Positions 5,737-60,516 of a stretch of DNA of 64,000 nt are shown here, piece by piece (positions within the stretch are counted from its first letter, which is position 1; every line of letters starts with the position of its first letter). This stretch comes from Alphaproteobacteria bacterium (GTDB taxonomy: Bacteria; Pseudomonadota; Alphaproteobacteria; MPNO01; UBA830), in contig OZ251539.1 in assembly GCA_965243135.1 (NCBI GenBank), positions 3,488,001 to 3,552,000 on the forward strand, written 5' to 3'. Made by a program: the position numbers and the translations under genes. Under the pieces are notes generated by a model. That model worked only from the letters and a program-made list of their open reading frames with translations. It was not told the DNA's origin and did not search any database.

Positions 5737-5742
5737 TTTCGG

Positions 5743-19619: not shown

Positions 19620-19714
19620 CGCTCCTGCCTCCGGTACGTTCCATACTCACAATATAATGGCTGTTTGTTCACAGGTAGGACGATTGTATCGATTTTTCAC
19701 CCCCTGACCCGATT

Positions 19715-20027
19715 CGAGGCGTTTGCGCTGCGCCATTTTTGTCAGCTGATGTCCGCTCGGAGTCCCGCGAGTCGCTCCAGCCGCCCGTCTGCAGACCCGC
19801 AAGGGTCGCGCTGGCGGGCGGATGGGCGACAAAAACGGAATATCCGGTTACCCCCTGGCACCATGTGGCGCACTCGGGGTAAGTCGGGCTGTGACTCGGG
19901 CGACGCGGTTGTGGAACGGCTTGGGGTGGAATCCGCGAAAATGGCGCTCCCGGCGTGGAAAATTCGCAGCTTTCCGTACCTGAATCGAGGTAAAGAAAAT
20001 TCAGCGATCCCGCAATCTTCATGTATT
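19715..20027. repeat. ~310-bp non-coding direct repeat, copy 2
   Basis: Aligns with 18729..19038. Confidence 0.9.
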
Positions 20028-20139
20028 ATGCCAGAGAAAATTCAAAGATCTCCACGGCGCGACGCTGTCGATAACCGGCGATATGAACAGTGCCATGATC
20101 TGTCCGGTTCTAGACTCTTCTTTCGCTGGAGAAGCTTCC

Positions 20140-20480
20140 TTAGCGCTTACCACACCGTGTCGTGGCTTGACCTATAGTTCCACCACCTTCTGGGCCAGCA
20201 ACTGCAATGACCAATTGCCTTCGAGGCGGCCCCTGACGCAAGGCAATGACCCTGGCTTCCGCCTCGCTATCGAGAGACTGCGCAGCGCCTCGCGCCACTT
20301 CGTTCCAGAGTTCGCTCGAAACCTCTCTCGACAAAATTCTGTCCAACGTCCGTCTTGGTCCGGTACGAAACCGCATCCACGGATCGATCTATGCCGGGCC
20401 GTCGGCGTCCGTCTTCAACAGAATCTGGGCGCTGCGGACCCTCTCGCTGCTGCCTTTCAGCCAGTGGAGTCGATAGGGCC
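20140..20480 (-). pseudogene. IS630-family transposase N-terminal remnant
   Basis: Fragments LKGSSERVRSAQILLKTDADGP, FVERGFERTL and LDSEAEARVIALRQGPP lie across frames with stops. Confidence 0.6.
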
Positions 20481-20745
20481 GCGGGTGCGCGGTCCCGCAC
20501 CGTCGATCCTCAAGATATGCAAGCCTTACTTCTGGAAGTGTGTCGGTCTTCATCCGTTCTCGGCAATGTTGACTGAACCTCGGGCCCACGGCGCGGCGGG
20601 CGAGGCGAGAAAAGCATTGATCAAGCCCGCTCGTATGGTATCGATAGGCATGCTACCGGTGCGGGATCCGGTCGAAGGCTTCCTTGGGAACATCGGGAAC
20701 GCCCTCGAGACCCGGCGGCTGAATTGCGGATTTTGAGGGTTTCCG

Positions 20746-21975: not shown

Positions 21976-22625
21976 TGCCTTGCGATCTCCCTGCGGAAGT
22001 CGGTTGCCGATCTGCAGATGTATCGCGGCAGGAGTTCCGTTTCTGCGGATGTTCCGCAAGCGCCGGAAGCCGAAGCGCGACCCGGCGCTGCGCCTTGACG
22101 CGAAAGCGCCGGTCGACTGCATTTGCTGTGCGGAACTTTCGATAGCCTGATGGCCTGCGGAGTTTCGGCGCTTCGCTCCGGCACCCTCGAGCCGGGCGGC
22201 GCGCGTCTTGGTTCGCGAACGGGGCCGACATGGCGTTTCGCCGAAAGCGAACGGCTTGCAGGAGCCGGAACGCGGCTTCCACCCGTCGATCCCGCGAACA
22301 GACCGCGCTCTTCTTCGGCCCGCAGCCCTCGGTCATGTCGCGGCGGGTCGCGTCTGCCGCTTCCGCATCGCCTGCACCGGCAGGGCGCATACGGGCCGGC
22401 GTCGGGCCGACGGCCCGACAGCGTCCTGTCGCAAGCTGCCTGCCGACGGAGACAGCGCGGCGGAACCGGATGACGCGCCGCTCGGCAACCGAAACCCGAG
22501 CGCGTCTCGTGGAGAAAACTGCGCATGCTTTCGTCCACCGCCCGATTGCCTCCCGGTAGGCGGACGCGAGCGTCCGCCTGTCGCGCTGGACGCGCGCTCC
22601 TTTGCCGGATAGCCGCTTTCCGCCA

Positions 22626-41998: not shown

Positions 41999-42497
41999 TC
42001 AGCAGCCCCTTCCCCCGGACCGCGTTTCCGCCGCGATTCGCCTCGTCCGTCGGAATCGCGCGACTCGCCCGCGAAACGGATTCGCGCCGCACGCCTCTTC
42101 CGAACACGTCCTTCGGTTCCGTAGCCGCGCTACGCGCCTTCGCGCCGCACCCGACAGCGCCTCCACACGCCGGACGACCTCGCTGCGGTCAAGCGGCAAA
42201 AAGCCGGCACAGGAGTAGCGGAACCGGACAGCGTAAGGCGCGTACTCGACCATTTCGTCGAATAGGGAAGCGCTTTCGTCGCGCCTCCTTAACCGCTCCA
42301 GCAAGCGCACGAGACTGCGGATTGTCGGGTACGTCTCGCCCAGCAACGCGAGCCATGCCTTAAACAACTTTTCGACCGCCTGTTGCGCATGGAAGCCAAA
42401 TATCTGCGAAAGTGTCTGCATCTCCCATGCCGCGCAGGGCGGACAGATCCCTTTCGGCGGCTTCCAGAAGTTCGCGCGCTTGCTTATGGTCGCTCAT
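41999..42497 (-). pseudogene. HEPN domain protein, frameshifted (~42405)
   Basis: MSDHKQARELLEAAERDLSAL in one frame, then IFGFHAQQAVEKLFKAWL...YAVRFRY in another. Confidence 0.8.
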
Positions 42498-42819
42498 AGA
42501 GCGTCCTTCCTTCCCGCAGCGCGCGAGCGGCGACATGGTTGAGGGAGTCGCGCCAGTACGCCATCTCGTCTTTGCTGTAAACAAGAACGTCGACATCGAT
42601 ATCGAACCCCGCCAACGCCCGGTAGAGGCGCACGGCTTCAGCGCGGCGACACCGGCCGGCACCGAAGGGTTCGGCCTCCACGACGAGCAAATCGACATCG
42701 GACTCCGCCGTCGCGCCGCCCCGCGCCCGCGAGCCGAACAGGATGACCTGCTCCGGATCCGCCTCGTCCACGATAACGCGCACCATCCGGTCGAGCAGCG
42801 CGGCGCCCGCCTGCGTCAC
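42484..42819 (-). CDS. Minimal nucleotidyltransferase (MNT) antitoxin-like protein
   Basis: VILFGSRARG...SDVDLLV motif, directly upstream of the HEPN gene. Confidence 0.88.
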   Translation of the reverse strand: MTQAGAALLDRMVRVIVDEADPEQVILFGSRARGGATAESDVDLLVVEAEPFGAGRCRRAEAVRLYRALAGFDIDVDVLVYSKDEMAYWRDSLNHVAARALREGRTLYERP

Positions 42820-43200
42820 GGCGCCGTTTCCTCGAAAAGCATCGAGACGCTTACATGGCTCGTCCGCGCCGGTACCGAAAATCCCTCGAAAGGTCTGGCG
42901 GGAAGCCAGTTCCGATCAGGGCGCTCGATGCCGACCGCTGCGGTTACCCCAAACGAAGGTTCGGCATCGTCCGCGCCGAACGAGACCGTCCGGCCAACCG
43001 TATCGTCTCCGAAGTCTCCAGCAGCCATGTCGATCGCGATCCCGTTTCCCATTTTATGGACGCGCCGGTCCCAATGTTCGAGTTCGACCGCTTCCGGTCC
43101 GGGTGCGCAGGAAGCCAACGCGCCCGCCGGGACAAGCCCTTCCCGCACCCGCCCGGCGGGATCGCTGATCGTCGCCATGACGCGCGTCGTTCCCCTCGAC
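42816..43200 (-). pseudogene. Degenerate clan AA aspartic protease-like gene
   Basis: GTTRVMATISDPA...FGADDAEPSFGVTA.VGIE resembles small clan AA proteases, but the DTG motif is missing. Confidence 0.45.
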
Positions 43201-43432: not shown

Positions 43433-45468
43433 CAGGGCGAATTCAAGAATGGCGCGATCATTGCCAAGCGCCGCCCTTGAGGAGGCGGCCGCGGCGTGAG
43501 ATTCGCGTCGGCGAGACGATGGCGGCGCGAGATCCGCGTCGGCGAGACGATGGCGGCGTGAAGAGACGGCAGCGGTGCTGACAGCGGTGGTGCGAGAGGC
43601 GAGGCTACTGGCGGACGTCAGAAGACCTCCGTGGACAGCTCTCGAACGGCCTGGCGCAGGTCGTAGTGCCGGTGAGCCTGCGGCAGGTAATCGTCCGCGC
43701 AACCGAACGATGGAGATCGCGGCGTTGCGAATCGAAGCCAGTGCACGGGCACTGCCCCCGACGTGGTTGCGGCGGCGGTCCTCGTCGTAAGTCATGTCGC
43801 GAACATGATGCACCCGGTTCTCGATTTCCCAGTGACGGCGAGCAATATCGAGAATCTCGGCAGGTCCTCCGTGCGATGGCGGGACGGAAGTTACTCCGTA
43901 AATGATTTCCGAAGTTGTCCCGACGATCTTTCCCTTTCTGAGTTTCTGGCGTATACGTTCGATGCGGAACGCTTGCCGTCGCCCGGGCAGTTCAACGTAC
44001 CCGTCCCAAGTTTTGTCGAGTTCGACGACCAGACAACTACGAGTGTCGATTCGACCGTGCGTTTTTTCGACCGTCTCGCTTTTACCGACCTCCTGATCGT
44101 TCCAGTCAATCGCTTTCGTCGAGTATCGTCTTCTGATTGCCCTTGACGACCATAAGATAATCGGCTCCCCTGTCCAAGATCAACTGGGTGGTTTCGACCT
44201 GAGTGTGCATGGCGTCAGCGGTCACAATACGTCCAGACAACTGCATGCTCCGTAACAACTTTCGCGCAGCTGGAATCTCGTTTGACTTGTCTGCGACTTT
44301 CACCTGACCGCAAATTAGTCCGGTTTCGTGCTCGACGGCGCCGACCAGATGGCATCCGTCCCCCCGCCGCGACGCTCCGCGCACGGATTTCCCGTCAAGG
44401 ATTCCGTTGGGATCCTGGTATTGCGCGGTCCATTCTCGCAAAGCCTTGTCAAGAGCTTCCGGGTCGACATTTGAAAGCACGCGATGGAAGGTAGCTCGGC
44501 GCCGTGCGGTTTCCATTATCGCTCTGAGCGCACCTCCGCCAGCTGCGGTTGCTTCAACTTTCTGGAGAAGTCCGCTATGGCGGTCACGCTGAACAAACCG
44601 CACAGTTGCGCCGCTATCGCGAGAACCGTTGCCAAAGCGCTGACCGCGACGACTTCGGAAGTCCGGCACCGTACTCAAATACTCGTACAGACTCCCCATT
44701 CTGTGATCCGGTATCTCGTCTACGTTCAATGTCTTGCAGTTCCAGCTCTTGTCGTCGGAAAGCATGCGAAGTTGCTTGCGGGCATCCTTTTCCAGCTCGA
44801 ACATCTTTCTGGACGTTCCGTGTTCGCGGTAACCGCCGCATGCGCTCGTATCCTTTTGTGAACCCAATGGCTTGCCAGTTTGCCGCTTGGTAACACGTTC
44901 CCTCGAAACGGTCCGGATCCACAAAAGTCTCCGCCATCAGGACTGGATGACCGTATGCCGCCTGAAAGTCGTCCGACAGGCGCTGGGTGCTGAGGGACAA
45001 AATATGGGACGCCAGATTGTGTCGCCGCCAAGGCGGAAGAATCAGTAAGCGTGCGTTGTTCGCTACAAGATGCAACCGGCGGCCACGCTGCTCGGGCGTC
45101 CAGCCACCGGTCTCGCGCCCGCAGCCGCCAGGCCCCGGCTTTCCAACCCAGCAACGCTACCCATTCCCCGTTCGGGGCCACGGCGACATGCCGCACCGCC
45201 TCGCCGACCATGCCGCGAAACTCAAGGTAGTGATGCTTCCGCATCGTCTCGTCCCACCGGTCGCGTTCGGCCCGGTCGAGCACCGGCCGAACGGCAATGT
45301 CGTTCGGCCCCCAAATGTTTTTCAGCATCATGGCCGGCACATTGGCGGCAAAAACCGGAAATGTCTAGAAAAAAATTACCCGCCGGTATTTCCGATCATT
45401 CGCCCCCTTCTTGAACGGCCTTTACCTTGCATTATCATTAGGTTAGGCTGAAAGATAAATTCGCCCTG
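43433..45468 (-). mobile_element. ISAs1-family insertion sequence (decayed) with DUF4338-fused transposase
   Basis: Terminal inverted repeats CAGGGCGAATT (43433) and AATTCGCCCTG (ending 45468). 9-bp target duplication GTTCGGGCG at 43424-43432 and 45469-45477. Transposase motifs DGKSVRG, KSNEIPA, VTADAMHTQ, VKGNQ and HHVRDMTYDED. Confidence 0.9.
43660..45340 (-). pseudogene. DUF4338 (DruA-like) + ISAs1 transposase, multiply frameshifted
   Basis: HHYL, VANNARLLILP, NLASHIL and ETFVDPDRFEGTCYQAANW, followed by ISAs1 DDE fragments in several frames. Confidence 0.85.
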
Positions 45469-45782
45469 GTTCGGGCGACTGCGCAGCGCCTTTCCGAACC
45501 CATGGCGGACCACGAAAGAAAGAACGTTCGCGGCGTTGGCCCTTGCCTGCCCGCTTGTTTCGCACCTCCGCCGAGCGGCGGAACGGCAGGACGTTCGTGC
45601 TCGCCTCATAGCGCGGCCTTTCACGCCGCAACGACAGCCTGGCCGAGGCACTCCGCGTTCCGGCGGCGGCGGTCACCGCTTCGGACGACGGCGCGCCCGG
45701 AACGACGGGCGGGCGTCGGTCGGAAATTCCGACCGGAGAACGTCCTGGTGGAACAAACCCGGCATCCGGCTATAATCGGCGA

Positions 45783-46199
45783 ACGACGCCTCGCGTTGCC
45801 GACTTCGCCGATGCCCATCTCCGCCACTGGGAGGATGCAAAATCGCTCTTCGCCCTTGACCGATGGGCGAATGCGGATCACCTCTACGGCCTCAGCGCGG
45901 AATGCGGCCTGAAGGCGGTGATGCAGGCGCTTGGCATGCAGGTAGACGACGAGGGCAAGCCCACGGAGAAAGAACACCGCGAGCACGTAGACAAGCTATG
46001 GCCCGCATACATAGACTTTGTTAAGCATCGCAACGGTGAGCGATACCTTCTTGATGGCGAACCATTTGATGACTGGTCGATCCACGACCGCTATGCGAAT
46101 CGGAGCCACTTCACGCGACCGAACGTAGCGCCGCATCGCGCTGCAGCTTGCCGGATACGCGATGTAGTCGAACTTGCGACCACTGAAGGCCTGCTATGA
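45783..46199 (+). CDS. Small HEPN-like protein (first gene of a three-gene module); start uncertain (ACG 45783 or GTG 45918)
   Basis: The frame is open upstream of 45918: DFADAHLRHWEDAKSLF...ADHLYGLSAECGLKAVM...H..L...DRYANRSH. Confidence 0.65.
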   Translation, partial: TTPRVADFADAHLRHWEDAKSLFALDRWANADHLYGLSAECGLKAVMQALGMQVDDEGKPTEKEHREHVDKLWPAYIDFVKHRNGERYLLDGEPFDDWSIHDRYANRSHFTRPNVAPHRAAACRIRDVVELATTEGLL

Positions 46200-47503
46200 T
46201 CGACAATCCCGTCTTTTTCGACGACATGCGTCCCCGCGTCGTGGAAGCACTCCGCGAAGCGGAGATACCGGACATCGACATCTATCTGGTGCGCAACCTG
46301 TATGGAATGCTGCGCATATCGGTATCTGAAGAATTTGAAGACAACCAGGCATGCTTGAAAGCCGTGAACCGCCTTGCAGACAAACTGAGCGTCGCTTTAG
46401 GGACGCACGGCCATCCTCCAGGTCGCCGCTCCCTCTTCGTGAGCGATCACCTGCTGAAAGACCTCGCAAAGACCGCGCAGCCGGTCGAAGGCTTCGGCAA
46501 CGTATTCTGGGAGGATCGCCTGATCACCGGCGAAGACTGGTGGACAATAAACGAGCCTTGCGCGAATGGGCGCGCAAAGCGTTGGACGCTATACTCGATC
46601 AAAGGCGGCGTCGGGCGCAGCACCACCACCGCAGTCCTCGCCCGGCATCTGGCTGGCAAGGGCCATCGAGTTCTAGTCGTCGATCTGGACCTGGAATCGC
46701 CAGGACTGTCATCAGCGATGCTCGACCCTTCCGCGCAGCCCAAATACGGCATAGCCGACTGGTTCGTGGAAGAATTGGTCGGGCAAGGCGACCTTCTGAT
46801 CGACGAGTTGACTGCCGAGCCAACCTGGGCGCAAGAACTCGCGGGGGCGGTGGCTGTCGCGCCCGCCCACGGCCGCGAGCCCGGCGAGTATCTGGCCAAG
46901 CTGGGACGCGTCTACATGCAGAGGGCCGACGCCCCCTGGATCGTTCGCCTCGAACGTCTGCTGACGGGTCTGGAGGCTCGTTTCGACCCTGATTTCGTCC
47001 TTATCGAAAGCCGTAGCGGACTGCACGACGTCGCAGCGGCATCCGTCACCGACCTCGGCGCCGACGTTATGCTATTCGCCACCGACTCGGAGAGCTGTTG
47101 GACCGATTACGGAATCCTCTTCGACCATTGGCGAGACCGAAATCTGGCGGCGAAAATCAGGGAACGCCTGTCGATCGTGTCCGCCCTGACGCCCGAACTC
47201 GAAACGGAACGATATTTGCAAGGCTTCAAGCAACGAGCGTGGGGCCTTTTCCGGGATCGGCTTTACGACGGCGTAGCCAACGCCTTCCTGCACGTACCTG
47301 ACGCTTCCGACGGGAATTTTTCGTTCGGCCTGAACGACGAAAGCGCGCCGCACAACCCGATCGCCGTTCACTGGACGCGCGGACTGGCGGCCGGCACCTC
47401 GCTGCGCGACCTGGAGCGGACCGCGGTGCAGCAGGCGCATGCGGAATTTCTACGCCGGTTCGATCGACTCGCCGACTTCGACGACCGTGGATTCGACCGA
47501 TGA
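46196..47503 (+). CDS. ParA/MinD-like ATPase with variant KGGVGR Walker A and N-terminal extension
   Basis: YSIKGGVGRSTT, VLVVDLDLESPGL and LIESRSG. ATGA overlap with the upstream gene. Confidence 0.85.
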   Translation: MIDNPVFFDDMRPRVVEALREAEIPDIDIYLVRNLYGMLRISVSEEFEDNQACLKAVNRLADKLSVALGTHGHPPGRRSLFVSDHLLKDLAKTAQPVEGFGNVFWEDRLITGEDWWTINEPCANGRAKRWTLYSIKGGVGRSTTTAVLARHLAGKGHRVLVVDLDLESPGLSSAMLDPSAQPKYGIADWFVEELVGQGDLLIDELTAEPTWAQELAGAVAVAPAHGREPGEYLAKLGRVYMQRADAPWIVRLERLLTGLEARFDPDFVLIESRSGLHDVAAASVTDLGADVMLFATDSESCWTDYGILFDHWRDRNLAAKIRERLSIVSALTPELETERYLQGFKQRAWGLFRDRLYDGVANAFLHVPDASDGNFSFGLNDESAPHNPIAVHWTRGLAAGTSLRDLERTAVQQAHAEFLRRFDRLADFDDRGFDR

Positions 47504-47726
47504 GCCAGGTCCCTGACGCTTCCGACGGGAATTTTTCGTTCGGCCTGAACGACGAAGGCGCGCCGCACGACCCGATCGCCGTTCACTGGACGCGCGGACT
47601 GGCGGCCGGCACCTCGCTGCGCGACCTGGAGCGGACCGCGATGCGGCAGGCGCATGCGAAATTTCTACGCCGGTTCGATCGACTCGCCGACTCCGACGAC
47701 CGTGGATTCGACCGATGAGCCAGGTC
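47297..47726 (+). repeat. 215-bp tandem duplication (2 copies, 6 substitutions)
   Basis: 47297..47511 aligns with 47512..47726. Confidence 0.92.
47500..47718 (+). CDS. 72-aa mini-ORF created by the duplication (copy of the ParA-like C-terminus)
   Basis: MSQV plus the C-terminal 68 aa of the ParA-like protein. ATGA-coupled on both sides. Confidence 0.5.
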   Translation: MSQVPDASDGNFSFGLNDEGAPHDPIAVHWTRGLAAGTSLRDLERTAMRQAHAKFLRRFDRLADSDDRGFDR

Positions 47727-49160
47727 AGCGTCGAGAAGGCCCGCAAGGCGCTCACCGCCCTACCGGAGGGAACGACGCGCGGGGAAATCCCTTCGCTCAA
47801 ACAAGTGTATCTGCCGCAGTCCCACATAAAGGCGATCGACCCGGACGTTCCGCTCGTGGTCGGGATGCGCGGGGCCGGCAAGACCTTCTGGTGGAGCGCG
47901 CTCCAGAATCCCGCTGTGCGCCAACTAGCGAGGCTGTCCGCGAGACGGTCCGGTTTGGCCGAAGACACCGAAGTGCGAACCGGGTTCGGCATCGGCCTCG
48001 CCCCGAACGAGCGCCCGGACAAGGACACGTTGCGGCTGCTGATGGAAAATGACGAACCGAGATCGATTTGGCGAACCGTGCAGGCTCGACACCTCGCGCC
48101 GGACAACCATCCGCTTCGAAAACAGAATACATGGGCGGAGCGCGCAAGATACGTCCGCGACAATCCGGAAGAGATCTCCCAACTGTTCCATCGGCGCGAT
48201 GCCGAGTGCAGCGAGAAGAACGTATATTTCATCATTCTTTTCGACGCATTGGACCAGTGCGCGGACGATTGGACAAACATGTACAGGGCCATTCGCGGCC
48301 TGCTGCAAACCGCTTTGGAGATGCGTTCGTACCGACGGCTTCGGACGAAGGTATTTCTGCGATCCGATCAAATTGACGAAACGAAAATCGGCGACTTTCC
48401 GGACGCGCGGACGATCCTGTCCTCGTCCGTGACATTGAGCTGGCCCCGCAACGAGTTATATGGTTTGTTGTGGCATTCTCTCGCGAACGGAAAAAACGGT
48501 TCCGCGCTCAGAAATTTTCTCTCGAACGGAGATTGGAAAGAATTGCTTCTCGACGGAAATCATTTGTTCGTCGTACCGAGAGACTTGGCGTTCGACGAAG
48601 AGACTCAACGCGAAAAATTCCGCGAACTGGCCGGTCAGCGCATGGGAGAAAGCCGCAGGCTCGGCATCCCTTATTCCTGGATCACGGATCACCTGGCGGA
48701 CGCAGATGGTCGGATAGGTCCCCGCTCGTTCATGGAAGCGTTGCGAAAGGCCGCCGAACACACCACCGAACGACATCCGAAACATCGCCATGCATTGCAT
48801 TACGAAAGCATCAGGCATGGGGCGCTTGCGGCCTCCGCGATACGGATCAACGAACTTCGGGAAGACTATCCGTGGATAGACCAGGTCCTCGCCCCCCTTG
48901 CAGGCATGTCCGTTCCCTTCGAATTCAGAGACGTCGCGCAACGGTGGCGGGAAGAACATCTTCCCGAACGCCTCAAAGCCGCCGACGGGGAGGCGAAACT
49001 GCCGCCCCGCCGCGTCGACGAAGGCGCGAACGGCATTCGCGAGGATCTGGAGCAGCTCGGCATCTTCCAACGCCTGGACGACGATTGGGTCAACGTCACC
49101 GAGGTGTTCAGGGCAGGCTACAGGCTCGGCCGGAAGGGCGGGGTGAAACCAGTTCAATGA
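47715..49160 (+). CDS. P-loop NTPase (STAND-like), third gene of the module
   Basis: VVGMRGAGKT Walker A, IILFDALD Walker B, KVFLRSD and HLADADGRIGPRSF. Confidence 0.8.
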   Translation: MSQVSVEKARKALTALPEGTTRGEIPSLKQVYLPQSHIKAIDPDVPLVVGMRGAGKTFWWSALQNPAVRQLARLSARRSGLAEDTEVRTGFGIGLAPNERPDKDTLRLLMENDEPRSIWRTVQARHLAPDNHPLRKQNTWAERARYVRDNPEEISQLFHRRDAECSEKNVYFIILFDALDQCADDWTNMYRAIRGLLQTALEMRSYRRLRTKVFLRSDQIDETKIGDFPDARTILSSSVTLSWPRNELYGLLWHSLANGKNGSALRNFLSNGDWKELLLDGNHLFVVPRDLAFDEETQREKFRELAGQRMGESRRLGIPYSWITDHLADADGRIGPRSFMEALRKAAEHTTERHPKHRHALHYESIRHGALAASAIRINELREDYPWIDQVLAPLAGMSVPFEFRDVAQRWREEHLPERLKAADGEAKLPPRRVDEGANGIREDLEQLGIFQRLDDDWVNVTEVFRAGYRLGRKGGVKPVQ

Positions 49161-50208
49161 CCTCGGGAAGGATTCTCCGGCTCACAAACGCACCCGAGAA
49201 CTTGATCGACGATCGCCAACCAAGCCGACAAGGATCGCGCCGTCCGCAGGGCTGTATCGTAAATCCGAAAACCGACGCAAGCTCGGTCAGAATTTCCCTG
49301 CCTCTCCGAGCCATTCCTATCCATTCCGTGAGCGTACAAATTTAATTGCGCCATAATCTCCCGTCAACCCATCTTCAGCACTTTTCACTGACGCCATCCC
49401 GTAACACATTGAAAATAAATCAACCAAATTTTTCATCGGTGCTGTATGGCACTACATTTTGTTGCGCTGCCTGTGCGGGCTGGTCCGAACGCCCAAGGCA
49501 TGCACGATAGCGCAGGCGTGGGCATCTAGACGGGCATCTTGGCGGATCACGATTTGGTCCCCATGCCGGGATTGTAGTGCGCCACGCGACTCGAATTATG
49601 GCACTACAAAGAAGGTTTCAGGCTCGACATTCAATAATATCATTAGGTTATGGCAGACAAATTGGCCGAAAAGGCCCTAATTCAACCGGAAAGTGCTGAA
49701 GATGGGTCAAGTTCGAGGCGCAAAGAATCCCGGATGATCCCACGTTAATTTTGCGTTGCATTTCCGGGTTTCTTCGTTGGTTCCCTCCGGCTTTCGCGAG
49801 CCGCTTCGGTTATTCCCGAGCCATGGCTTCGAACGGGCACTTGGGCATGGAGGCTTCTTCCGCTGCGGGAGTCCGCCTCGCTCGACCGGACGAGCGGAAC
49901 GCTCCCGTTCGACGGAACCATTGCCTGGAGTTCGGGCGTTTCGCCGCTTGCGGCGCATGTCGTCGCTCGCGTCGTCCGGCGCCTGCAGGCCCGGCGCGCG
50001 CCACGCGCCGAAAGTTCGGGACGCAAGCCCGGACGCCCCACAGGATTTTCGCGGAGCAACAGGCCCGCTCGCCCCCGCGCCGAGGCAAAGAGGGAGGCGG
50101 TTGAGGGAAACGTTCATCGCCAAGCGCTGTCCGCGAGGAGGAGCGGCAGCGGCCTTTCGCGGAAGCGGCTGTCGAAATGTCCGAACGGGACGTCGAACTC
50201 GCCCGGCT

Positions 50209-51729
50209 TCAGGCGGCCTCGCAATCGAAGCCGACGACGTTGCGCTCCTCGCGGCTGAACTCCACCCCGATCAGGTGGACCGAACGACCGAGATGGCGGT
50301 ACTTGTCCGCATAGCCCTTCTCCCGCAGTTGCGCGAGCGCGGTTCCCTCCCGTCCGCGCTCCACCACCTTGAACTCGAACAGGTAGACGCGCCCGCCGGC
50401 GCGGACCGCCATGTCGGCGCGCCCCCGGCTGCCGCTGTCCTCGGCCACCGGCTCGAGGCCCTCCATCAGGAAGCAACTGGACGCTCGCGTAGTGGGCCTC
50501 GTACTTCGCGACGGGGCTGGTCGCGTACCATTGGTGCGGGATGGCGGCGAAGACGCCGCGGAACAGGGTCTCGATGCGCTCGAAGTCGTTCGCCTCCAGC
50601 AATTCGCCCAGCCGCAAGTTATCCGCCTTCTCGCGGGCATGACGCGGGAGCAGCTCTTCCAACAGGGCTTCGCCCAGGCTCCGGCGCACCTCGAGGTTCG
50701 GGTAGCCCAGCCTGTAGCGCCCGTCCTCCTCGCCCGCGATGGTGAGGTAGCCGGTTTGGAACAGAAGCGCCTCCACCGAGATCCTGTCCACGTCGACGGA
50801 CGAAAGCAGGCTTTCGCTGCCGGTCATGCCGTCCAAGTCGGGAGTGGGCAGGTCGCGGCGCGCCAGCGTCTCGACCAGAAAGGTCGGCGTGCCGCTCTGG
50901 AACCAGTACGGGCGGAACTCGCGCCGTCGAAACAGCAGCAGGAGGCCGAACGGGTTGTAGACCCTCTCCGGCCCGCGCCAGTTGTAGCCGTTGTACCAGC
51001 GCCGGATCTCGTCCCGGTCCAAGCCCTCGAGTTCAGGGGCGAAGACCGCGTCCAGCTCGTCGTCCGTGCAGCCGCAGATGTCCGAGAACTCAGGCTCCAG
51101 CGTGATGTCGATCAGGTTGTTCAGGCCAGAGAACAGGCCCGCATGCGAGAACTTGCTCACCCCCGTCAGGAAAACGAAACGGAGATGCCTGTCGCTGTCC
51201 TTGATCATCGCGTAGAAGCCGCGCAGGAAGTCGCGGTTGGCCGCCGCCAGCTCCCGGTCGCCGAGCGCGTCCAGAATCGGCTTGTTCGTCCACCAGCACG
51301 ACCGCCCGCTGCCCGGCGCGCTCGTGCAGCGCCCTTATCAGGCGCCGGAAACGGACCGCCGCCTCGGCGGGGCCCGGTTCGAGGCCGGCCAGCCGTTCCG
51401 TCTCCTCCAGCTGGTCTTCCACGTTTCTCCGAACGAGGTCCGGGGAGTCGAAATTGCCCCCGCCGAAGCTGATCCGCACGACGGCGCGTCGACCAGTCCC
51501 ACTTGCCGTGCACGGCGAGGCCCCGGAACAGCTCCTCGCTTCCCTCGAACAACTCCTGCAGCGTGTCCACCAGCAAGGTCTTGCCGAACCGGCGCGGACG
51601 CGACAGGAAATAGTAATCGCCCCCTTCGACGAGGCGGCGCACATGGTCCGTCTTGTCGACGTAGTAGCAGTCCCTCGTCCGGATTTTCCGGAGGGAGGTC
51701 ATGCCGGTCGGCAGCATGCGCTTCGTCAT
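50209..51729 (-). pseudogene. AAA-ATPase + PD-(D/E)XK paralog, frameshifted
   Basis: MTKRMLPTGMTSL, SRPRRFGKT, FLTGVSKF and GRADM...YLFEFK spread over several frames. Confidence 0.9.
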
Positions 51730-51831
51730 CCAAAAAGAGTAGGCAGCCGCGCCGGAGCCGTCAAGGAGGCGGCGGTCGCAAGCAGGGCGAATCCAGGAAC
51801 GGGGCGGTCGTTGCCAAGCGCTGCCCGCGAG

Positions 51832-51929
51832 GCGGCAGCAGTGCGGGAAGCGGCAGCAGTGCGGGAAGCGGCAGCAGTGCGGAAAGCGGCAGCAGTGCGG
51901 AAAGCGGCAGCAGTGCGGAAAGCGGCAGC
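51832..51929. repeat. 18-bp tandem repeat GCGGCAGCAGTGCGG(G/A)AA, about 5.4 copies
   Basis: Read directly from the sequence; no spacers between units. Confidence 0.92.
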
Positions 51930-51942
51930 GTCGGGAGGCCAA

Positions 51943-52052
51943 GTGCGAGCAGTCACGATAACCGGCAGTTTCAGGCGCAAAGCCGCGCCTGAAAGGAAGG
52001 CGTTTCCGTTTCCTCTCACGCCTGAGAGTGATCGGGCCGGAAAATGCCGTTT
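51943..52052. repeat. Left arm of a long inverted repeat
   Basis: GTGCGAGCAGTCACGATAAccGGCAGTTTCAGG...GGAAGGCGTTTCCGTTTCCT...CACGCCTGAGAGTGAT matches the reverse complement of 57177..57305. Confidence 0.85.
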
Positions 52053-52056
52053 GCGG

Positions 52057-52551
52057 TCAAGACGGCCTCAGGCACCAAGATCGTATCCGTTTGCGGATCT
52101 CCGACTTCGGCAACCGGCATCTCGGATGCGCGGCGATCGCTCGGAGGCCCGCGCAGAGCTTGTCTCCGTCCTCCTCGCCATCCTCGAACATCCGGTCTAT
52201 CAGCCACAGAACGCCGTGGCATGCGACCTTTTGCTCCGCAGCCAATTTACGCAACTCACCGTCGCCGGACAACAACGTCCAGGATCTGGTTTTTGCGAGG
52301 GCAAGAGCGAAGCTGTCCGGCAACGAAAGTGCCCGTCGTCTCCGTCGGTAGTCCAGCGCAAGCGCAACCTCGCCGCCGTCCAGCTCTTCCACACGGAGCC
52401 CGAGTTTGGTCAGGGTAGAATCGCCACGGTCCTTGAGTTCCCGTCGATACAGCAAATCCGGCACGGCGAATTCGAACGGAAGGCGGAAAGCGGTCTCCAG
52501 CAGCGATCCGCGTTCGAGATCGATTAAAACCGAAGTGTCGGAAACCAGCAT
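52057..52551 (-). CDS. PIN domain protein (putative toxin)
   Basis: LVSDTSVLIDL, LSLPDSFALALA and LLSGDGELR. Confidence 0.85.
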   Translation of the reverse strand: MLVSDTSVLIDLERGSLLETAFRLPFEFAVPDLLYRRELKDRGDSTLTKLGLRVEELDGGEVALALDYRRRRRALSLPDSFALALAKTRSWTLLSGDGELRKLAAEQKVACHGVLWLIDRMFEDGEEDGDKLCAGLRAIAAHPRCRLPKSEIRKRIRSWCLRPS

Positions 52552-52586
52552 CGTCACGATGTTCCTACCCGGCCGAGGATAGATTT

Positions 52587-53654
52587 CTACCGGGGAGGTT
52601 CCTGCATCCGGCGGCTCAACTCGTGAACCGAACTTCCCAGGAGTTCGGCCGCCTTGGCCTCCGAGATCGCGCCTTCCGCGAGAGCGCGGAAGCACAGGCG
52701 CTCGAAACGCTTGGGCTTCTCGCCCTTCATGGCGTGGGGCTCCCGATACGGCGGACTGCGCCAGCCACGACGCGAGAACTCGTCGAACAACTGCCGGAAC
52801 AACGTTTCACTGAAAATGCCAAGCTCCCTGCAACGATAGGCGAGAGCTTGCACGCTCACGCCGAAAATTCGTTTCAAGTCGAAGAGTTCATCCCAGACCA
52901 CGGACTTGCGACGTCTACCGATCTCCGCTCGAAGCGTCTCCGCCGGCATGAGGAACGCCCCGGCAAATCGGTGCGCTGCCTTCTCGGCGTCGACCTTCGG
53001 GGCAACATCCATGATCATGTGGCCGAGCTCATGCGCAATCGTAAAGCGCTGCCGCTCGCCCCAGTGCTCTTGCTCTTGGTTCACGACAATGACGGATGCT
53101 GCGCTTCCGTCTTCACGGCGGACCCTGGCCGTCAGGCCGTCGACACCGGTGAGGTCCACAGAGATGACCTTGATGCCGCGCACTTCCGACAAGTCGACCA
53201 GATTGGCTATCGGATTGAGACCTACCCTCCAGTGAACGCGAAGCCCTTGGGCGGCGAGCTCCGCCTCGGCCGGATCGCGCAGTACAGGCCAGGGCGCCTC
53301 TCGCGGCCGATCCCAAGCGACGCTGGGCAGACGGAGAAGTTCCTCGACCGTAAGATACCGTTCCAGCAGGTGCAGCACTCTGGCCTCGATTCGGGCTTCC
53401 TCGCGTTTGCTCGTAGGCTTCTTCCTACGGAACTCGACAGCCTCCAAAACTATGTCCTGATCGCCGACCAGATAGTCCACGGTCACGTCGAGCGCGTCGG
53501 CAAGCGCGATAAGAACCCCGGAACTCGGCATTGCCTCGTCGCGCTCGTACTTGCTGATCGCCTGCGCCGTCACGCGGTTGTCGATTCTGGCCTCCAGATC
53601 CCTCAACGACAATCCTGCGGCTGATCTCAAGACATTAAGCCGTTGACCTATCAT
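52587..53654 (-). CDS. XRE HTH + ImmA/IrrE Zn-metallopeptidase
   Basis: N-terminal HTH, RQRFTIAHELGH, AHRFAGAFLMP and FGVS. GGAGGA RBS and TTGACA-N17-TATTTT promoter. Confidence 0.92.
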   Translation of the reverse strand: MIGQRLNVLRSAAGLSLRDLEARIDNRVTAQAISKYERDEAMPSSGVLIALADALDVTVDYLVGDQDIVLEAVEFRRKKPTSKREEARIEARVLHLLERYLTVEELLRLPSVAWDRPREAPWPVLRDPAEAELAAQGLRVHWRVGLNPIANLVDLSEVRGIKVISVDLTGVDGLTARVRREDGSAASVIVVNQEQEHWGERQRFTIAHELGHMIMDVAPKVDAEKAAHRFAGAFLMPAETLRAEIGRRRKSVVWDELFDLKRIFGVSVQALAYRCRELGIFSETLFRQLFDEFSRRGWRSPPYREPHAMKGEKPKRFERLCFRALAEGAISEAKAAELLGSSVHELSRRMQEPPR

Positions 53655-54457
53655 TGTTTTTATCCTCCATTAGACAGTTGATAAAATATGCATTGAAATC
53701 TAATTTGTCAAACAAGATCTGAAACTGAGCCGTTTGCGCTGTGCCATTTTTTTGTCGGCGGCCGGCCGGCACCCCGCGGACCGCGCCGCCTTCAGAACAA
53801 AAGCGAATATCCGGTTGCCGCGGGCCGCGCCGCAAACCCGGGGCGAGCCGGGCGGCCTGAACGCAGGCGGCCGGATCGGGGGGCAGCGGTCGGACGACCG
53901 CAGCGGTCATCCCGTGTCGCGCACCTGACCGATCAGCTACCGCCCCGACGTTCCACCCGCAAACGCCCGAGCACGACCGCCGTCACGAGACCGAGTCGCG
54001 GACGCATTTACGCCGCGGACATAGTGCTTCTTCATAAGCGTTGTCGAACCGGCTGTAGCTTCGCGGCGGAGCGGCGGTTCGCGCTTCCAAGAGGGGTTGC
54101 CCCTGAAGACTGGCGTGAAGATCCGCCCGTCATGCTTTTCCGGGTCGACGCGGGCGACCGTACTCGCCGGCTTGGCACCCGGCGGCCCGGCGGCATTCCT
54201 ACCCGTAGCGAACCCGCCAGGTTTTTTTGCGCGGCGCGGCCGTTTGCCGCAGGGGGCGGCGTCCGGCCGGTCCTTGGGGTGGAATCTGCGAAAATCGCGG
54301 CATCAGCGCGGAAAATTCGCAGTTTTCCGCGCCCGAGGAAAAATTCCGCGCCCCTGAAAGCTGTCCGCATTTCAAGACGTTACGAACAGCGCACGCGACT
54401 CATCCGCCGCGACCCGCAGGTAGTTGCACACGCCAAAGGTCAGAAGACGAACACACA

Positions 54458-54976
54458 TCAGGCGCATACTTCCCTGAAGCTACGGAGTTTCAGGCGGAAC
54501 CGGTGATGGGATGACCAATCATCCTTGATGCTATCCGCCTCCGCAATATCGAGTAACCCTTCTTTGATCATGGAAGCCATGAGATCCTGTGTTGTAAGGA
54601 GACGGAGTGCTTGATCGGTACGCCGTGCTTGCGCCATGGCTTGGCGATCATCAATAGCCAATACATACTGCCGATGTACGGCCACGGCGATGGCAGAGCA
54701 TTCACCGGCTCCCAGGCGGCCGGACGCTGACAAAGATCCGAAGAGAGACATCTCCCCGGGATTGGCAATGCTTACTTGCGAAACGGCGCTCTCGTCGATT
54801 GTCTCGGAGAACCGTTTCTGCTGCTCTGGATATTGATCGGATATTTCGGCGGCGACATGATCCGTAGCGACGAAATCGTGAGAGTGGCGAGCAACGAGAT
54901 CCATCCGGTCAATGCGGAGGAAATTCACCAAGACTGACGTATCTGCCACGATAATTGCGGGTTTGCCTTCTACCAC
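54458..54976 (-). CDS. PIN domain protein (putative toxin)
   Basis: VADTSVLVNF, LGAGECSAIAVA and LAIDD. Confidence 0.85.
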   Translation of the reverse strand: MVEGKPAIIVADTSVLVNFLRIDRMDLVARHSHDFVATDHVAAEISDQYPEQQKRFSETIDESAVSQVSIANPGEMSLFGSLSASGRLGAGECSAIAVAVHRQYVLAIDDRQAMAQARRTDQALRLLTTQDLMASMIKEGLLDIAEADSIKDDWSSHHRFRLKLRSFREVCA

Positions 54977-54984
54977 AACACAGA

Positions 54985-56223
54985 TTATTCCCCACGAGCA
55001 ATTTTGGCTAAATCAAGCAGAGTGCGGCCGCGCATATTCAGCGTCTTGTTCAATTCGAGAACGCGGCCGCGAGAAATCTCCTTGCGGCGATAGGCCTCGA
55101 TGGCGAGATGAGCTATCTCTCTTCGGAGTTCGCGGTCCCAACGATGGCGCCGCTCAGGTTTCCCCACTTCGCCGAACATGTCGAGAGCCTTCAGATACTT
55201 GCGCCCGGCGTTTTCCTGTTCCCTGAGCTCCTGGCATTCTGGATGGGAGATGCACCGAAGGCTTTTCGACCGGTACAAGGCCGCTTGGTAGCTCACGCCG
55301 AAATGGTGCGCCAGCATGGCGATATCCTTGTAGGCGATGCGTTGAGAATGCGCCGGCGAGCGAAGCTCGGTTTCAATACGGCCACCGGTGGCGACATCGA
55401 AGACGGTCTGCCCCTGACGGCTCGCACGGCCTTTGTCCAAGCTCTGCAACGCTTCGTAGACCCCATTTCTCGGCATGAGGAAAGCGGCGGCAAACGCGTT
55501 CGCGCGCCGCTCTACCATTTCGGATGCGTTGTCGGCGCTGGAAACCGCAATGTTACGATTCCGATCGAGCAGGGTATGAGCATATTCATGGGCATAGGAG
55601 AAACGCTTGCGGCCCCTCGGATGAAGCGAATTGACGAGGATCGCCAGTCCAAGGCTCGAATGCCGCAGGAACAGACCCGACATCCAGTCCGGAAGTTCGA
55701 CACCCGATGCCCAGATGTCTTGGGACGCAATCAGTTTGCAGATATCGGCAATCGGTGCGTTGCCGACGCCGAGTCGGCGCCGCTCCTGTTCCGCGGTCCG
55801 CTCGCCTTGGGCCACGGCTTCTCCTATGGTGCGCGGCATCCGCGTCTCGTAGCTTGGCGGACCGGGGCGAGGTTCGGCGCCGAGCAGACGCTTCAGCCTC
55901 ACGCCTTCACGGCAAAGGCCGATACAGCGAGCGACCTGTTCGCGCGTCAATGAATTCCGTTCCAGCCTGGGCGCAGCGCGGCACAGCGCCACCAGCATGT
56001 CCTCGTCCTCGTTCTGAGCGCCTTCCTGCAGGAACTTAGCGACCGGGTGGAGGTAGAGCTCGGCAAGCCTCGTCAGTTCAAGCGTCGACACCGAGCGATT
56101 GCCCGCCTCCAACTGAGTGATCGCGGTTCGCGGCAGGCTCAGCGCATCGGCCACCGCCTGTTGACTGAGGCCCCTCGCCTCGCGTTTCGTGCGCAATCTG
56201 CGTCCGAGCTCCTCCGCCTCCAT
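54985..56223 (-). CDS. XRE HTH + ImmA/IrrE Zn-metallopeptidase
   Basis: GLSQQAVA HTH, RFSYAHEYAH and ERRANAFAAAFLMP. AGAGGAG RBS before ATG 56223. Confidence 0.92.
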   Translation of the reverse strand: MEAEELGRRLRTKREARGLSQQAVADALSLPRTAITQLEAGNRSVSTLELTRLAELYLHPVAKFLQEGAQNEDEDMLVALCRAAPRLERNSLTREQVARCIGLCREGVRLKRLLGAEPRPGPPSYETRMPRTIGEAVAQGERTAEQERRRLGVGNAPIADICKLIASQDIWASGVELPDWMSGLFLRHSSLGLAILVNSLHPRGRKRFSYAHEYAHTLLDRNRNIAVSSADNASEMVERRANAFAAAFLMPRNGVYEALQSLDKGRASRQGQTVFDVATGGRIETELRSPAHSQRIAYKDIAMLAHHFGVSYQAALYRSKSLRCISHPECQELREQENAGRKYLKALDMFGEVGKPERRHRWDRELRREIAHLAIEAYRRKEISRGRVLELNKTLNMRGRTLLDLAKIARGE

Positions 56224-56270
56224 CGTCTGATCTCTCCTCTGCTGCATCGCTCATGACGGCAACAGGTCAA

Positions 56271-58699: not shown

Positions 58700-58937
58700 A
58701 GCGCATGGGTTCGCCCGTGCAGTCCTTCGGCTCGACCGTCGTTGTCCTTCCCGTCGACGGGCTGGAGGTTCCCGAACGCTCTGTCGAGCTTCAGGCGAAC
58801 GCTTGTCTATCCGAATCCCCAGGTCGTCACCACTGACTGGGCGTATCCGGTTTCCTTCCCGGCGCAGCTCCGCCTCGACGACGCGGAGATTCGATCATTT
58901 CAGGCGTCGGCAAAATCAGCAGCGGACGTTCCGCCAT
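58700..58937 (-). pseudogene. Truncated 5' end of a probable S8 peptidase (IetS-like)
   Basis: MAERPLLILPTPE...RRRGG overlaps the AAA gene's 3' end and stops after 36 codons. Confidence 0.5.
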
Positions 58938-59919
58938 CGGCCTTCACCTGATGCTTCACGGTTCCGGCGCGCGCGGTCCAGATCGCAAGTTGATCCGACA
59001 CGATCGACTTCAGCGGCTTGCCGCCCATGGCAAGGGCATGGCAGCGTGCGATGTCGAGACAGAATTGCTCGACTTCGGCATAGCTTATCCTGCCGAGCTT
59101 TCTCGCAAGAACCATAGCCGAATGGCCCAGCGAGTCGTCGAACCGTTCCGCAAACGCCTCGATATAGTCCGCGACCGCCTTTTGCGTCGGCATAGGCAGC
59201 GACAGGCGAAGCTGGAAGCGGCGCCATGACGCCCGGTCCAGAAGTTCCGGATGGTTCGTCGCGCCGATAATGATCGTATAGCTCGGCAGATCGTCGAACT
59301 GCATGAGAAGCGAAGTGACGACGCGCTTGATTTCGCCGGTCTCGTGGCGGTCGCCCCGCTCCTTTCCGATCGCGTCGAACTCGTCGAAGAACAGAACGCA
59401 GGGCGTGGTGCGCGCATAGTCGAACACCCGCTTCAGACGCGCGGCTGTCTCTCCAAGATAGCTCCCGATCATCGCCTCGTAGCGCACTACGAGCAGCGGA
59501 ACGGCGATCGCCTCGGCGATTGCTTCGGCCAAGCTGGTCTTTCCCGTTCCCGGCGGCCCCGCGAGGAGAACGCGATGCCGCGGCTCCAGGCCGTACGCCC
59601 GCAACACGTCGGCCCGAATTTGTTCCTGAATTAATTGCGCGACAGCATTGTTCAGGGAGCCGGGCAGGATCAGGTCGTCGAGTCGGCGCCTCGGAACGAC
59701 CTCGGATACGAAATCGCGGCTTCCGGTGCGGGAGGCAGCGGCGGCCGGGGAGAGGTTGCCCCCGTTCAATCGCAGCACCCGGGTCAAACGCTCAGCCAGC
59801 ACGTTATGTTGTTTCGTGCGTTCTTCCGCGATGATCGCTTCCGCAGCGGCGCGCGCAGCGGCCTTGTCTCCCGACGTTCCGGCCTTCACCAAGGCTATCA
59901 ACAGATCGCTACGGGCCAT
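58900..59919 (-). CDS. AAA ATPase (IetA-like)
   Basis: MARSDLL, GPPGTGKT, SYLGETA, FFDEFD, ETGEIKRVV and ATNHPELLDRA. Confidence 0.88.
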   Translation of the reverse strand: MARSDLLIALVKAGTSGDKAAARAAAEAIIAEERTKQHNVLAERLTRVLRLNGGNLSPAAAASRTGSRDFVSEVVPRRRLDDLILPGSLNNAVAQLIQEQIRADVLRAYGLEPRHRVLLAGPPGTGKTSLAEAIAEAIAVPLLVVRYEAMIGSYLGETAARLKRVFDYARTTPCVLFFDEFDAIGKERGDRHETGEIKRVVTSLLMQFDDLPSYTIIIGATNHPELLDRASWRRFQLRLSLPMPTQKAVADYIEAFAERFDDSLGHSAMVLARKLGRISYAEVEQFCLDIARCHALAMGGKPLKSIVSDQLAIWTARAGTVKHQVKADGGTSAADFADA

Positions 59920-60516
59920 GGCATCGCGCCGGAAATTCAGCCTGCCGGGCAGAGCGCCTTACATGGGCATCCGCCAAGACAGCGTCGGCAAGAGGTTCCC
60001 CAACCTCCGCAGTACCGGTCTTTCCCGAACCGATGCCGGAAAACCGGCGTCCGATCAGTCGGCCGGAAACGGCGGGGCGAATAAGCGACATGCCTCCTCT
60101 CCCTGCGGATGCAGGCGGTCAACTGAACCGAATCCAGAAGTTTCGATACCAGCGCAGATTGCACGACGCAAACCGACACCGCGAATAATCCGCCGCATGT
60201 TCGAACGGCCGGCTGCTCGAACAGCGTAAACTCCGTCGTCACCATGTTGCGGATGAGGATGGCTACCCGAAGCTCACCATGGTGGTCCAAAGACTCATTG
60301 ACCCGCGCGTTCCATACCGTCAGCACGGCCCGACCGGTGTTTGCTGGTCGGACGCGCGGGTCGGAAATGCCGAGCGACAGGCTACAGGAAGACCAGCCTC
60401 AATGTCTGAGCGAGCTGCTTCTCCCCGCTGACACCCAAATTATGACCTTGCCTCCCGGCGCCGTGCGCATGCCGGCTATTCGGGTTATGATCGCACGTAG
60501 CGAAAGCCGTTCGACC

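Follow-up and report, generated by a model that had tools for sequence, protein, structure and literature searches.

The 64,000-nucleotide stretch of contig OZ251539.1 analyzed here (GenBank assembly GCA_965243135.1 of an Alphaproteobacteria bacterium, positions 3,488,001 to 3,552,000 of the forward strand; hereafter, the window) contains three co-oriented frames, denoted here genes A, B and C, that match the three components of the candidate defence system PDC-M28 of PADLOC and correspond to HINPO (HEPN, inactive nucleotidyltransferase (NTase)-ParA, ORC/Cdc6), a system known from a computational description (Li, Burroughs and Aravind, bioRxiv 10.64898/2026.10.19.760177, 22 October 2026). We consider it probable that the locus is a copy of PDC-M28 and HINPO that is losing its function in this genome: the start codon of A is lost, a duplication occupies the junction between B and C, and C is changed at conserved positions.

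The original prediction, which was made from the sequence alone, interpreted this locus as a candidate defence system with a layout not known from any characterised system. The defence interpretation agrees with both the PADLOC assignment and the HINPO description. The layout is not new because it matches two independent computational sources, so that the family is already known from a catalogue and from a computational description; a match to a system described before was one of the outcomes that the original prediction itself named as refuting it. The features of the locus are the following:

45771..45776, + strand: TATAAT hexamer, candidate -10 element, 9 nt 5' of the ancestral start of A, read from the sequence
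45786..46199, + strand: gene A, 137 codons, predicted HEPN-fold protein, PDC-M28A, in the PA-HEPN1 position of HINPO (PADLOC, alignment, AlphaFold2, Foldseek)
46196..47503, + strand: gene B, PDC-M28B, 435 aa (NCBIfam NF047398, PADLOC PDLC04559)
47297..47726, + strand: tandem duplication, 215 nt, two copies (repeat search, Tandem Repeats Finder (TRF))
47500..47718, + strand: chimeric open reading frame (ORF) of 72 aa, derived from the duplication (ORF list, PADLOC PDC-M28B tail match)
47715..49160, + strand: gene C, 481 aa (PADLOC PDLC04561, NCBIfam NF047389, AlphaFold2, Foldseek)

Gene content and family assignment

Genes B and C are two long + strand ORFs in the ORF list, whereas gene A lies in a frame that stays open between 45612 and the TGA at 46197-46199. 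As reported in the original prediction, ADHLYGLSAECGLKA and RYANRSH occur in this frame. Thus, all three frames are found, co-oriented, at the place where they had been predicted. The G+C content of the region at 45-49 kb is 0.565-0.642, compared to 0.65-0.75 at 1-42 kb (where only the stretch at 19-22 kb is lower, with 0.51-0.64), in accord with the previously noted difference from the core genes.

The family assignment rests on matches to the PADLOC-DB v2.0.0 models that are nearly end to end for all three genes: A to PDLC04558 (PDC-M28A; E 3.4e-48, profile positions 3-137 of 138), B to PDLC04559 (PDC-M28B; E 1.6e-129, profile positions 3-432 of 438), and C to PDLC04561 (PDC-M28C; E 1.8e-159, about 1-480 of 480 profile positions). 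The TATAAT hexamer at 45771..45776 may be a -10 element, judging from its sequence; it was not listed by the promoter scan because no -35 hexamer reached 4/6.

Probable decay of the window copy

Position 45771, given in the original prediction as the start of the first gene, belongs to a TAT codon inside the TATAAT hexamer and is not a start, and the first in-frame ATG, GTG or TTG of the A frame is the GTG at 45918. A search with the A frame identified 385 proteins at E<=0.001 out of 388 candidates, mostly 137-141 aa in length. In the alignment, the homologs open with M-P-R-V-A-D-F, whereas the window reads T-P-R-V-A-D-F; codon 45786-45788 is ACG in the window, and the corresponding column holds M in 67 of the 74 homologs. 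Because the methionine column of the homologs aligns with this ACG, gene A was delimited as 45786..46199, without the usual start codon. The same substitution is apparent in comparison with a relative that is 74% identical and was called with an upstream extension (P0003), which reads NPASGYNRRTM PRVADF where the window has NPASGYNRRTT PRVADF. As an initiator codon, ACG is very poor.

The original prediction had all three genes joined by ATGA overlaps. The A/B overlap is indeed ATGA (46196-46199), but B and C are not directly joined because a 215-nt duplication intervenes. The repeat search detected a direct repeat of 215 nt with 96% identity (47291-47505 and 47506-47720), and TRF reported 47297-47726 with a period of 215, 2.0 copies and 97% matches. 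The duplicated unit consists of the last 68 codons of B and the first 4 codons of C, which creates an ORF of 72 aa that starts with MSQV, the beginning of C, continues as a copy of the B tail (PADLOC PDC-M28B, E 1.3e-06, profile positions 373-434), and overlaps the B stop and the C start by ATGA, one at each end. The two repeat copies differ at 8 sites, of which 2 are located in the junction microhomology CA(C/G)GT(A/C) and 6 are internal; all 6 internal differences are non-synonymous transitions. In the second copy, within the 72-aa ORF, M replaces the valine that is invariant in B (V411).

Gene C, like B, is open, in partial agreement with the original claim that the two large genes are intact; that claim does not extend to their junction, nor to the sequence of C, which departs from the family at 20 of the 206 columns that are at least 90% conserved (for the 31 other sequences, the median is 6 and the maximum is 16). 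The departures at positions where all 31 others agree include S232R, K233T, R316L and R458W, some of them non-conservative; R181Q is a further substitution in the window C. In Tajima relative-rate tests, C compared to its two closest relatives yielded 44:27 and 48:30 (chi-square 4.07 and 4.15), against 22:21 for a control pair; this excess is marginal, with p about 0.04 in each test and the window branch shared by both. The terminal branch of C, which is long in the C tree (0.61 vs a median of 0.15), was dropped as evidence of acceleration because close relatives are missing from that tree, and the relative-rate test was used instead.

Gene A: a predicted HEPN-like bundle with a set of conserved polar residues

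The AlphaFold2 model of A, obtained from 75 sequences, consists of four long helices (predicted local distance difference test (pLDDT) 91.8, predicted template modelling (pTM) score 0.88). A Foldseek search of the PDB returned HEPN proteins in each of its first ten places (ST0689, 4nqf, TM0613, SsR10, TT1696, AF_0298 and the sacsin HEPN among them), all of them weak matches, with a probability of at most 0.99, a best E of 0.16, a TM-score of ~0.5 and none at E<=1e-3. The Pfam family HEPN_AbiV (PF18728) is weakly matched by 54 of the 75 members of the A family (best E 7.8e-05), all below the curated cut-off; for the window A, the match has E 0.038 and 14.6 bits against a curated cut-off of 27.1. 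A had no NCBIfam match and no Pfam match at E<=0.01. Thus, two independent but weak lines, the modelled structure and the family-level sequence matches, support the prediction of a HEPN-like helical bundle.

The interpretation of A as a HEPN RNase effector relied on the R-x5-H of the RYANRSH motif, which is present in the window protein as R102-x5-H108. In a survey of 109 A relatives (107 representatives of 128-160 aa from the best 150 A-like proteins, and two plasmid proteins), R102 is kept in 95%, whereas H108 is kept in only 12%, and therefore the R-x5-H is not a HEPN motif of the family; the RYANRSH motif, accordingly, lends no support to RNase chemistry. The nearest conserved histidine is H117 (83%), which gives R-x14-H. 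Other conserved polar residues of A are R13 (97%), H14 (93%), D17, E39 (100%), K43 (99%), H67 (98%) and Y103 (96%).

Gene B: a ParA-class NTPase with an invariant arginine in the P-loop

B consists of a conserved N-terminal domain of ~125 aa (46196-46570), close to the ~130-aa extension described in the original prediction, followed by a nucleoside triphosphatase (NTPase) of the ParA/MinD class (residues 127-313). It carries the SIKGGVGRSTT sequence, so that the deviant KGGVGR Walker A reported previously is present, and matches NCBIfam NF047398 (KGGVGR-motif variant AAA ATPase) with 167.2 bits against a cut-off of 90. The signature lysine K136 and R141, the arginine at the position of the P-loop lysine, are invariant in 35 of 35 B sequences. 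Downstream of Walker A, B contains DLDLESPG and ESRSGLHD, and P169 and G170 are present in at least 90% of the sequences. An arginine in place of the Walker A lysine and a PG following DLDLE are features stated for the ConB2 ParA proteins, with sensor-1 placed by eye in B. The invariant Lys-to-Arg change suggests slow or absent hydrolysis, in which case B may be a binding switch rather than a motor.

Pfam matches of B are confined to the P-loop region (CbiA, AAA_31 and ParA, as well as MinD families), and the PDB profile matches (ArsA, Soj, ParA, MinD, Mrp and BcsQ; best 2.4e-08) are all within residues 122-191. For the N-terminal domain, hhalign against the minimal nucleotidyltransferase (MNT) encoded in the window itself gave a probability of 0.24%, the PDB profile search produced nothing better than E 0.22, no NTase family of Pfam was matched at E<=10 in more than 1 of 32 members, and an Atlas search with the N-terminal 125 residues yielded no usable match.

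Gene C: a predicted ORC/Cdc6-like ATPase

C carries GMRGAGKTF and ILFDALDQ, which bears out the intact Walker A and B motifs of the original prediction. K56 belongs to Walker A, and D177 and D180 belong to Walker B. The match to NCBIfam NF047389 (P-loop ATPase, Sll1717 family) is borderline (75.6 bits, cut-off 75) and covers residues 149-453 only. C had no Pfam match at E<=0.01, and a search of PDB sequences with the C profile gave 0 matches at E<=1. The AlphaFold2 model (pLDDT 84.6, pTM 0.86), in which the C-terminal domains are helical only, resembles ORC/Cdc6 proteins and BrxC, the ATPase of BREX, with 13 Foldseek matches at E<=1e-3; the best structural matches are 9bcx_B (1.5e-04), 9zll_B (1.7e-04) and 2qby_A (TMt 0.45). 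The TM-scores on the query (0.29-0.38) are low, a result to be expected from a multi-domain protein. RdrA and Avs3 are further down the Foldseek list (Avs3 at rank 37, with a probability of 0.44), and the Atlas leads were ORC-CDC6-like, nSTAND1 and NPHP3_N. No Pfam repeat family, such as would form the sensor array of a classical STAND protein, was found in C (481 aa) at E<=0.01; no search aimed at repeats was made. Of 9 clusters looked up, one had a source name ("AAA family ATPase").

Conservation and spread of the module

A scan of 185,579 species genomes (one genome per species) identified 224 relatives of C, of which the best 80 loci were kept, and the six-frame ORFs of these loci were searched with hidden Markov models built from the A, B and C alignments. 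A gene was counted as full when a single match covered at least 85% of the profile and as present in part with any match of at least 25 bits. By these measures, full A, B and C are present in 53 of the 80 C-anchored loci, at least part of B adjoins C in 78, and at least part of A is detected in 68; B and C occur without a detected A in 6 loci, and C stands alone in 2 (L076 and L077). The order A-B-C recurs among the related loci, and 49 of the 53 full loci passed a filter for it. Among these ordered loci, an in-frame start permits a 4-nt overlap between A and B in 41 of 49 and between B and C in 40 of 49, under a rule that picks the start nearest to the upstream stop and hence favours finding overlaps. 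Split genes are found in many related loci (for example, L006, L015, L041 and L048).

Several of these loci depart from the common arrangement. B and C are encoded in a single ORF in one of the 80 loci (L073, 4615-7452); an extra partial A-B copy is located upstream of A-B-C in L059 (2711-6004); and A follows C instead of preceding B in L042 (7456-7923), which is among the 53 full loci. In two of the loci that have B and C and lack A, another gene takes the upstream place: a 333-aa ORF with CxxC pairs in L032 (3501-4499) and a 600-aa ORF in L030 (2477-4276), the latter, judged by eye, possibly a transposase. In L051, a short remnant of A (MMTHPEDFSDAHRRHWEDADK) persists under the detection threshold.

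The 80 loci come from metagenome-assembled genomes (MAGs) of Acidobacteriota, Pseudomonadota, Gemmatimonadota and others, and the A-like proteins form 987 clusters at 50% identity. More distant copies, with C proteins 30-39% identical, were detected on 24 plasmid records, whereas no phage record with a C relative was found in a tblastn search of C against a phage collection. The plasmids pSurvcare220 of Enterobacter bugandensis and pTM2 of Tistrella mobilis share the identical gene order, with genes that abut or overlap and 35-39% identity; the first genes of these modules match the A profile with E of 1.3e-27 and 1.6e-44, respectively. The pTM2 copy lies at 4243-7422 of locus L082. On pSurvcare220, the module is located beside an integrase, a transposase and GNAT/DUF1778 pairs. 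The FastTree phylogeny, built from 74 sequences of C, requires 19 changes of the phylum label (minimum 8, shuffled mean 36.7), a pattern that is compatible with, but does not prove, repeated transfer of the module.

Genomic neighbourhood

The surroundings of the locus at 38.9-64 kb were scanned with Pfam (E<=1e-5), using 126 ORFs that are 110 aa or longer, of which 66, at 42-64 kb, were also compared to PADLOC, along with 20 further ORFs, including those at 18.3-22.1 kb. Housekeeping genes (lspA, ribF and a MaoC-type dehydratase) stop near 42 kb. Toxin-antitoxin (TA) genes, RmrA-like genes, a PDC-S70 match and IetA are found beyond that point, and therefore a defence-island setting is confirmed. 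The original prediction placed the locus in an island of TA, SIR2 and AAA genes; TA and AAA genes were found, but no SIR2 family was detected in any of these ORFs, with the rest of the window unscanned.

On the - strand, the last housekeeping gene is directly followed by adjacent genes for a HEPN protein (PF05168, 5.9e-10) and an MNT (NTP_transf_2, 4.6e-10; PADLOC PDC-S09) at 42002-42915, a pair that looks like a HEPN/MNT toxin-antitoxin module. Between this pair and transposase remnants, a 31-nt unit is repeated 2.2 times (43491-43558, 94% matches). Just upstream of the module, there are three overlapping - strand ORFs in different frames (44109-45364), one of which matches DDE_Tnp_1 (1.7e-10) and another the Pfam DruA family (2.4e-15, profile positions 117-225 of 297); no PADLOC DruA model was matched at 1e-5. 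These ORFs appear to be a broken mobile or defence gene.

On the other side of the module, also on the - strand, are an AAA-ATPase_like (PF09820) and PDDEXK_9 gene that is frameshifted over at least 3 frames (50117-52056) and contains, in its upstream part, an 18-nt unit repeated 5.4 times (51832-51929, 98% matches); a PIN-domain ORF, two RmrA-like genes with helix-turn-helix and M78 peptidase domains (9.5e-53 and 1.3e-25) and a PDC-S70 match (2e-11) at 52060-56250; and the AAA ATPase IetA at 58903-59958 (4.9e-142), for which the IetS partner was not found among the scanned ORFs of at least 110 aa. The region at 57-59 kb has strongly negative GC skew (-0.16, -0.22) and AT skew (-0.17, -0.25). 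At 19000-22000, where G+C falls to 0.514, a ThsB TIR-like ORF (19188-19616, - strand, 4.4e-13) and a Schlafen AlbA_2/HATPase_c_4 ORF (20746-21972, + strand) form what is, by sequence, a second small defence-like islet.

Among the related loci, every fifth of the 80 was examined for neighbours (16 loci, 109 flanking ORFs), and PADLOC defence genes (E<=1e-8) were detected within 6 kb in 7 of the 16, with no background rate to set against this count. These genes are a DRT-like reverse transcriptase; mad3; DrmMI with a dGTPase; a type IIG restriction-modification (RM) system; HmaA/DrmD; Ppl with a prokaryotic Argonaute (pAgo)/SIR2-like gene and ThsB; and HEC-01A with PDC-M68 and HmaB.

Comparison with known systems

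The closest counterpart of the module is HINPO. According to the available text of the preprint (bioRxiv 10.64898/2026.10.19.760177), the ConB2 ParA proteins have an arginine where the Walker A lysine would be, along with a PG motif that lies downstream of sensor-1, and in HINPO, within ConB2, the ParA is joined to an inactive Pol-beta nucleotidyltransferase that is N-terminal and evolves rapidly and, in several cases, also to the AAA+ NTPase. The module described here agrees with that account in having a HEPN gene first, a ParA with an extra N-terminal domain in the middle and an AAA+ protein of the ORC/Cdc6/STAND clade last, in the arginine and the subsequent PG motif of the ParA protein, and in an occasional ParA-ORC fusion (here, L073); an immune role is predicted for both. 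The identity of A with PA-HEPN1 is proposed from position and fold only. The differences from the published description, as far as its available text goes, are that the Pol-beta fold of the N-terminal domain of B is not confirmed here, that the preprint stresses multicellular bacteria whereas the 80 loci come from MAGs of varied phyla, and that the window copy lacks the usual start codon of A and carries a duplication between B and C. The same text regards ParA as the primary effector, with HEPN as a backup to a core formed by ParA and the sensor, and cites work according to which the HEPN proteins of related ParA systems are anticodon nucleases.

PDC-M28, which A, B and C match nearly end to end, is one of the PDC systems, described in the available part of their source (Payne et al., bioRxiv 10.1101/2024.01.29.577857) as 145 untested candidates, which were recognised through some members that lie inside BREX, DISARM or type I RM loci and were added to PADLOC. 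No embedding of the module in such a system was seen in the window. The name PDC-M28 was absent from the literature searched.

Other resemblances are more limited. A HEPN protein of the MAE_18760 family and a ParA/Soj ATPase form a dyad that has been proposed, in the accessible part of the article, to be a toxin-antitoxin system with the ATPase as the antitoxin (Anantharaman et al. 2013, PMC3710099). Like the module, this dyad combines genes for a HEPN protein and a SIMIBI-type ParA/Soj ATPase in one operon, and the ATPase is proposed to control the HEPN toxin; however, it consists of two genes, and its HEPN protein keeps the Rx4-6H motif, whereas the module described here has a conserved AAA+ gene as its third component and does not conserve the motif. 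None of the Pfam models matched by A corresponds to the MAE_18760 family. AbiV, a lactococcal abortive infection protein, is the nearest Pfam family to A, through the weak matches below the cut-off, and is listed in the same article as a HEPN fold without the canonical Rx4-6H motif (PMC3710099). BrxC and the ORC/Cdc6 proteins provide the best structural matches of C, but there is no match of C to PDB proteins at the sequence level, and C has other partners. C is much shorter than BrxC, and AbiV acts as a single gene.

Proposed mechanism and alternative explanations

Following the proposal of the preprint and general knowledge of these families, we can outline how an intact module might act. 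Through its AAA+ domain and the helical domains at its C terminus, C would recognise foreign DNA or some other signal of infection and would drive an ATP-dependent assembly or switching of B. B, in turn, would block the invader as a multimer and/or release A, a toxic effector that would bring about growth arrest or death of the infected cell. The three genes form one translationally coupled operon, and their products would probably act as a complex.

Several observations weigh against the interpretation of the locus as a decaying copy of a HEPN-based defence system. The B and C frames are still full-length and open; apart from the marginal excess in C, no acceleration is detected in B (9 of 177 conserved columns changed, rates 15:15) or A (3 of 47 conserved columns changed, rates 3:4); and the ACG of A could result from a sequencing error or function as a weak start. 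With regard to the family as a whole, the structural matches of A are weak, the canonical Rx4-6H motif at the start of the last helix is not conserved among the 109 A relatives, leaving the RNase activity of A unproven, the Pol-beta/nucleotidyltransferase nature of the N-terminal domain of B was not reproduced by sequence methods, the preprint reports enrichment in multicellular bacteria, the 7 of 16 loci with neighbouring defence genes are not set against a background, and no experiment on the PDC-M28/HINPO family was found in the literature searched, as far as its available texts go. The first group of these observations is compatible with a copy that still works: translation of A would begin at ACG, or A would not be needed; the 72-aa ORF would serve to pass translational coupling on from B to C; and the changes in C would be lineage-specific adaptations of a sensor engaged in an arms race. 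B and C match their profiles end to end, both ATGA overlaps are retained around the 72-aa ORF, and, given the occurrence of B and C without a detected A in 6 of the 80 loci, B-C pairs may work alone, as would be in line with the core of ParA and sensor envisaged in the preprint. Yet a very poor initiator occupies a codon where nearly all homologs have M, C is changed at positions where all 31 other sequences agree (R316L, R458W, S232R, K233T), and neighbouring genes are broken as well. A functional copy thus seems possible but unlikely, and a copy that is probably losing its function remains the preferred interpretation.

The role of the module could also differ from that outlined above. The lack of conservation of the Rx4-6H histidine, kept in 12% of the relatives, the affinity to AbiV, whose entry in PMC3710099 is without this motif, and the argument of the preprint for ParA as the primary effector are all consistent with A being a non-catalytic HEPN-fold adaptor or sensor, with the B multimer or another activity as the effector. 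The conserved polar set of A (R13, H14, E39, K43, H67, R102, Y103 and H117), on the contrary, resembles an active site or a specific binding site, and the HEPN proteins of related ParA systems are anticodon nucleases according to the work cited in the preprint, so that we regard this possibility with reserve, as one that holds in a minority of plausible outcomes. A cassette that functions mainly in addiction, with a HEPN toxin and a ParA-like antitoxin that stabilise mobile elements, has been proposed for the MAE_18760 dyad (PMC3710099, in its accessible part) and would fit the presence of the module on 24 plasmid records and the integrase, transposase and GNAT/DUF1778 pairs beside the Enterobacter plasmid copy. 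Such a cassette appears improbable here: the large third AAA+ gene is conserved, with B adjoining C in 78 of 80 loci, and would be needless for a two-part TA system, although the TA and abortive-infection roles are not mutually exclusive. Finally, the matches of B to the CbiA, ParA and MinD families of Pfam and to ParA/Soj structures over the P-loop might indicate a partition system for plasmids or chromosomes (ParABS-like) or a system that positions cargo. We reject this explanation as extremely improbable: as stated in the original prediction, no parB accompanies the locus (no ParB family among the 126 ORFs scanned at 38.9-64 kb; no centromere search was made), the Walker A lysine is an invariant arginine, in departure from the canonical KGGxGK[ST], the structure matches of B cover only ~45 residues, and B is conserved together with a HEPN-fold protein and an ORC/Cdc6-like ATPase, in a defence-island setting.

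A combined reading that we put forward with considerable hesitation is that the A family uses R13-H14, E39, K43, H67, R102-Y103 and H117 instead of Rx4-6H, so that A would be a new catalytic form of the HEPN fold or else a non-catalytic sensor or adaptor, and that, separately, the 72-aa ORF could be expressed as a free copy of the B tail that interferes with the coupling between B and C and would thus constitute a natural dominant-negative by which the module is silenced.

Significance of the module

With regard to the family, the window copy adds little beyond a route of decay, through loss of a start codon, duplication at a gene junction and faster change in the presumed sensor. The family itself is widespread, as seen from the 224 C relatives and the 987 clusters into which the A-like proteins fall, and the module joins a ParA-class protein in which the P-loop lysine is always an arginine, an ORC/Cdc6-like ATPase and a HEPN-fold protein without the usual catalytic motif.

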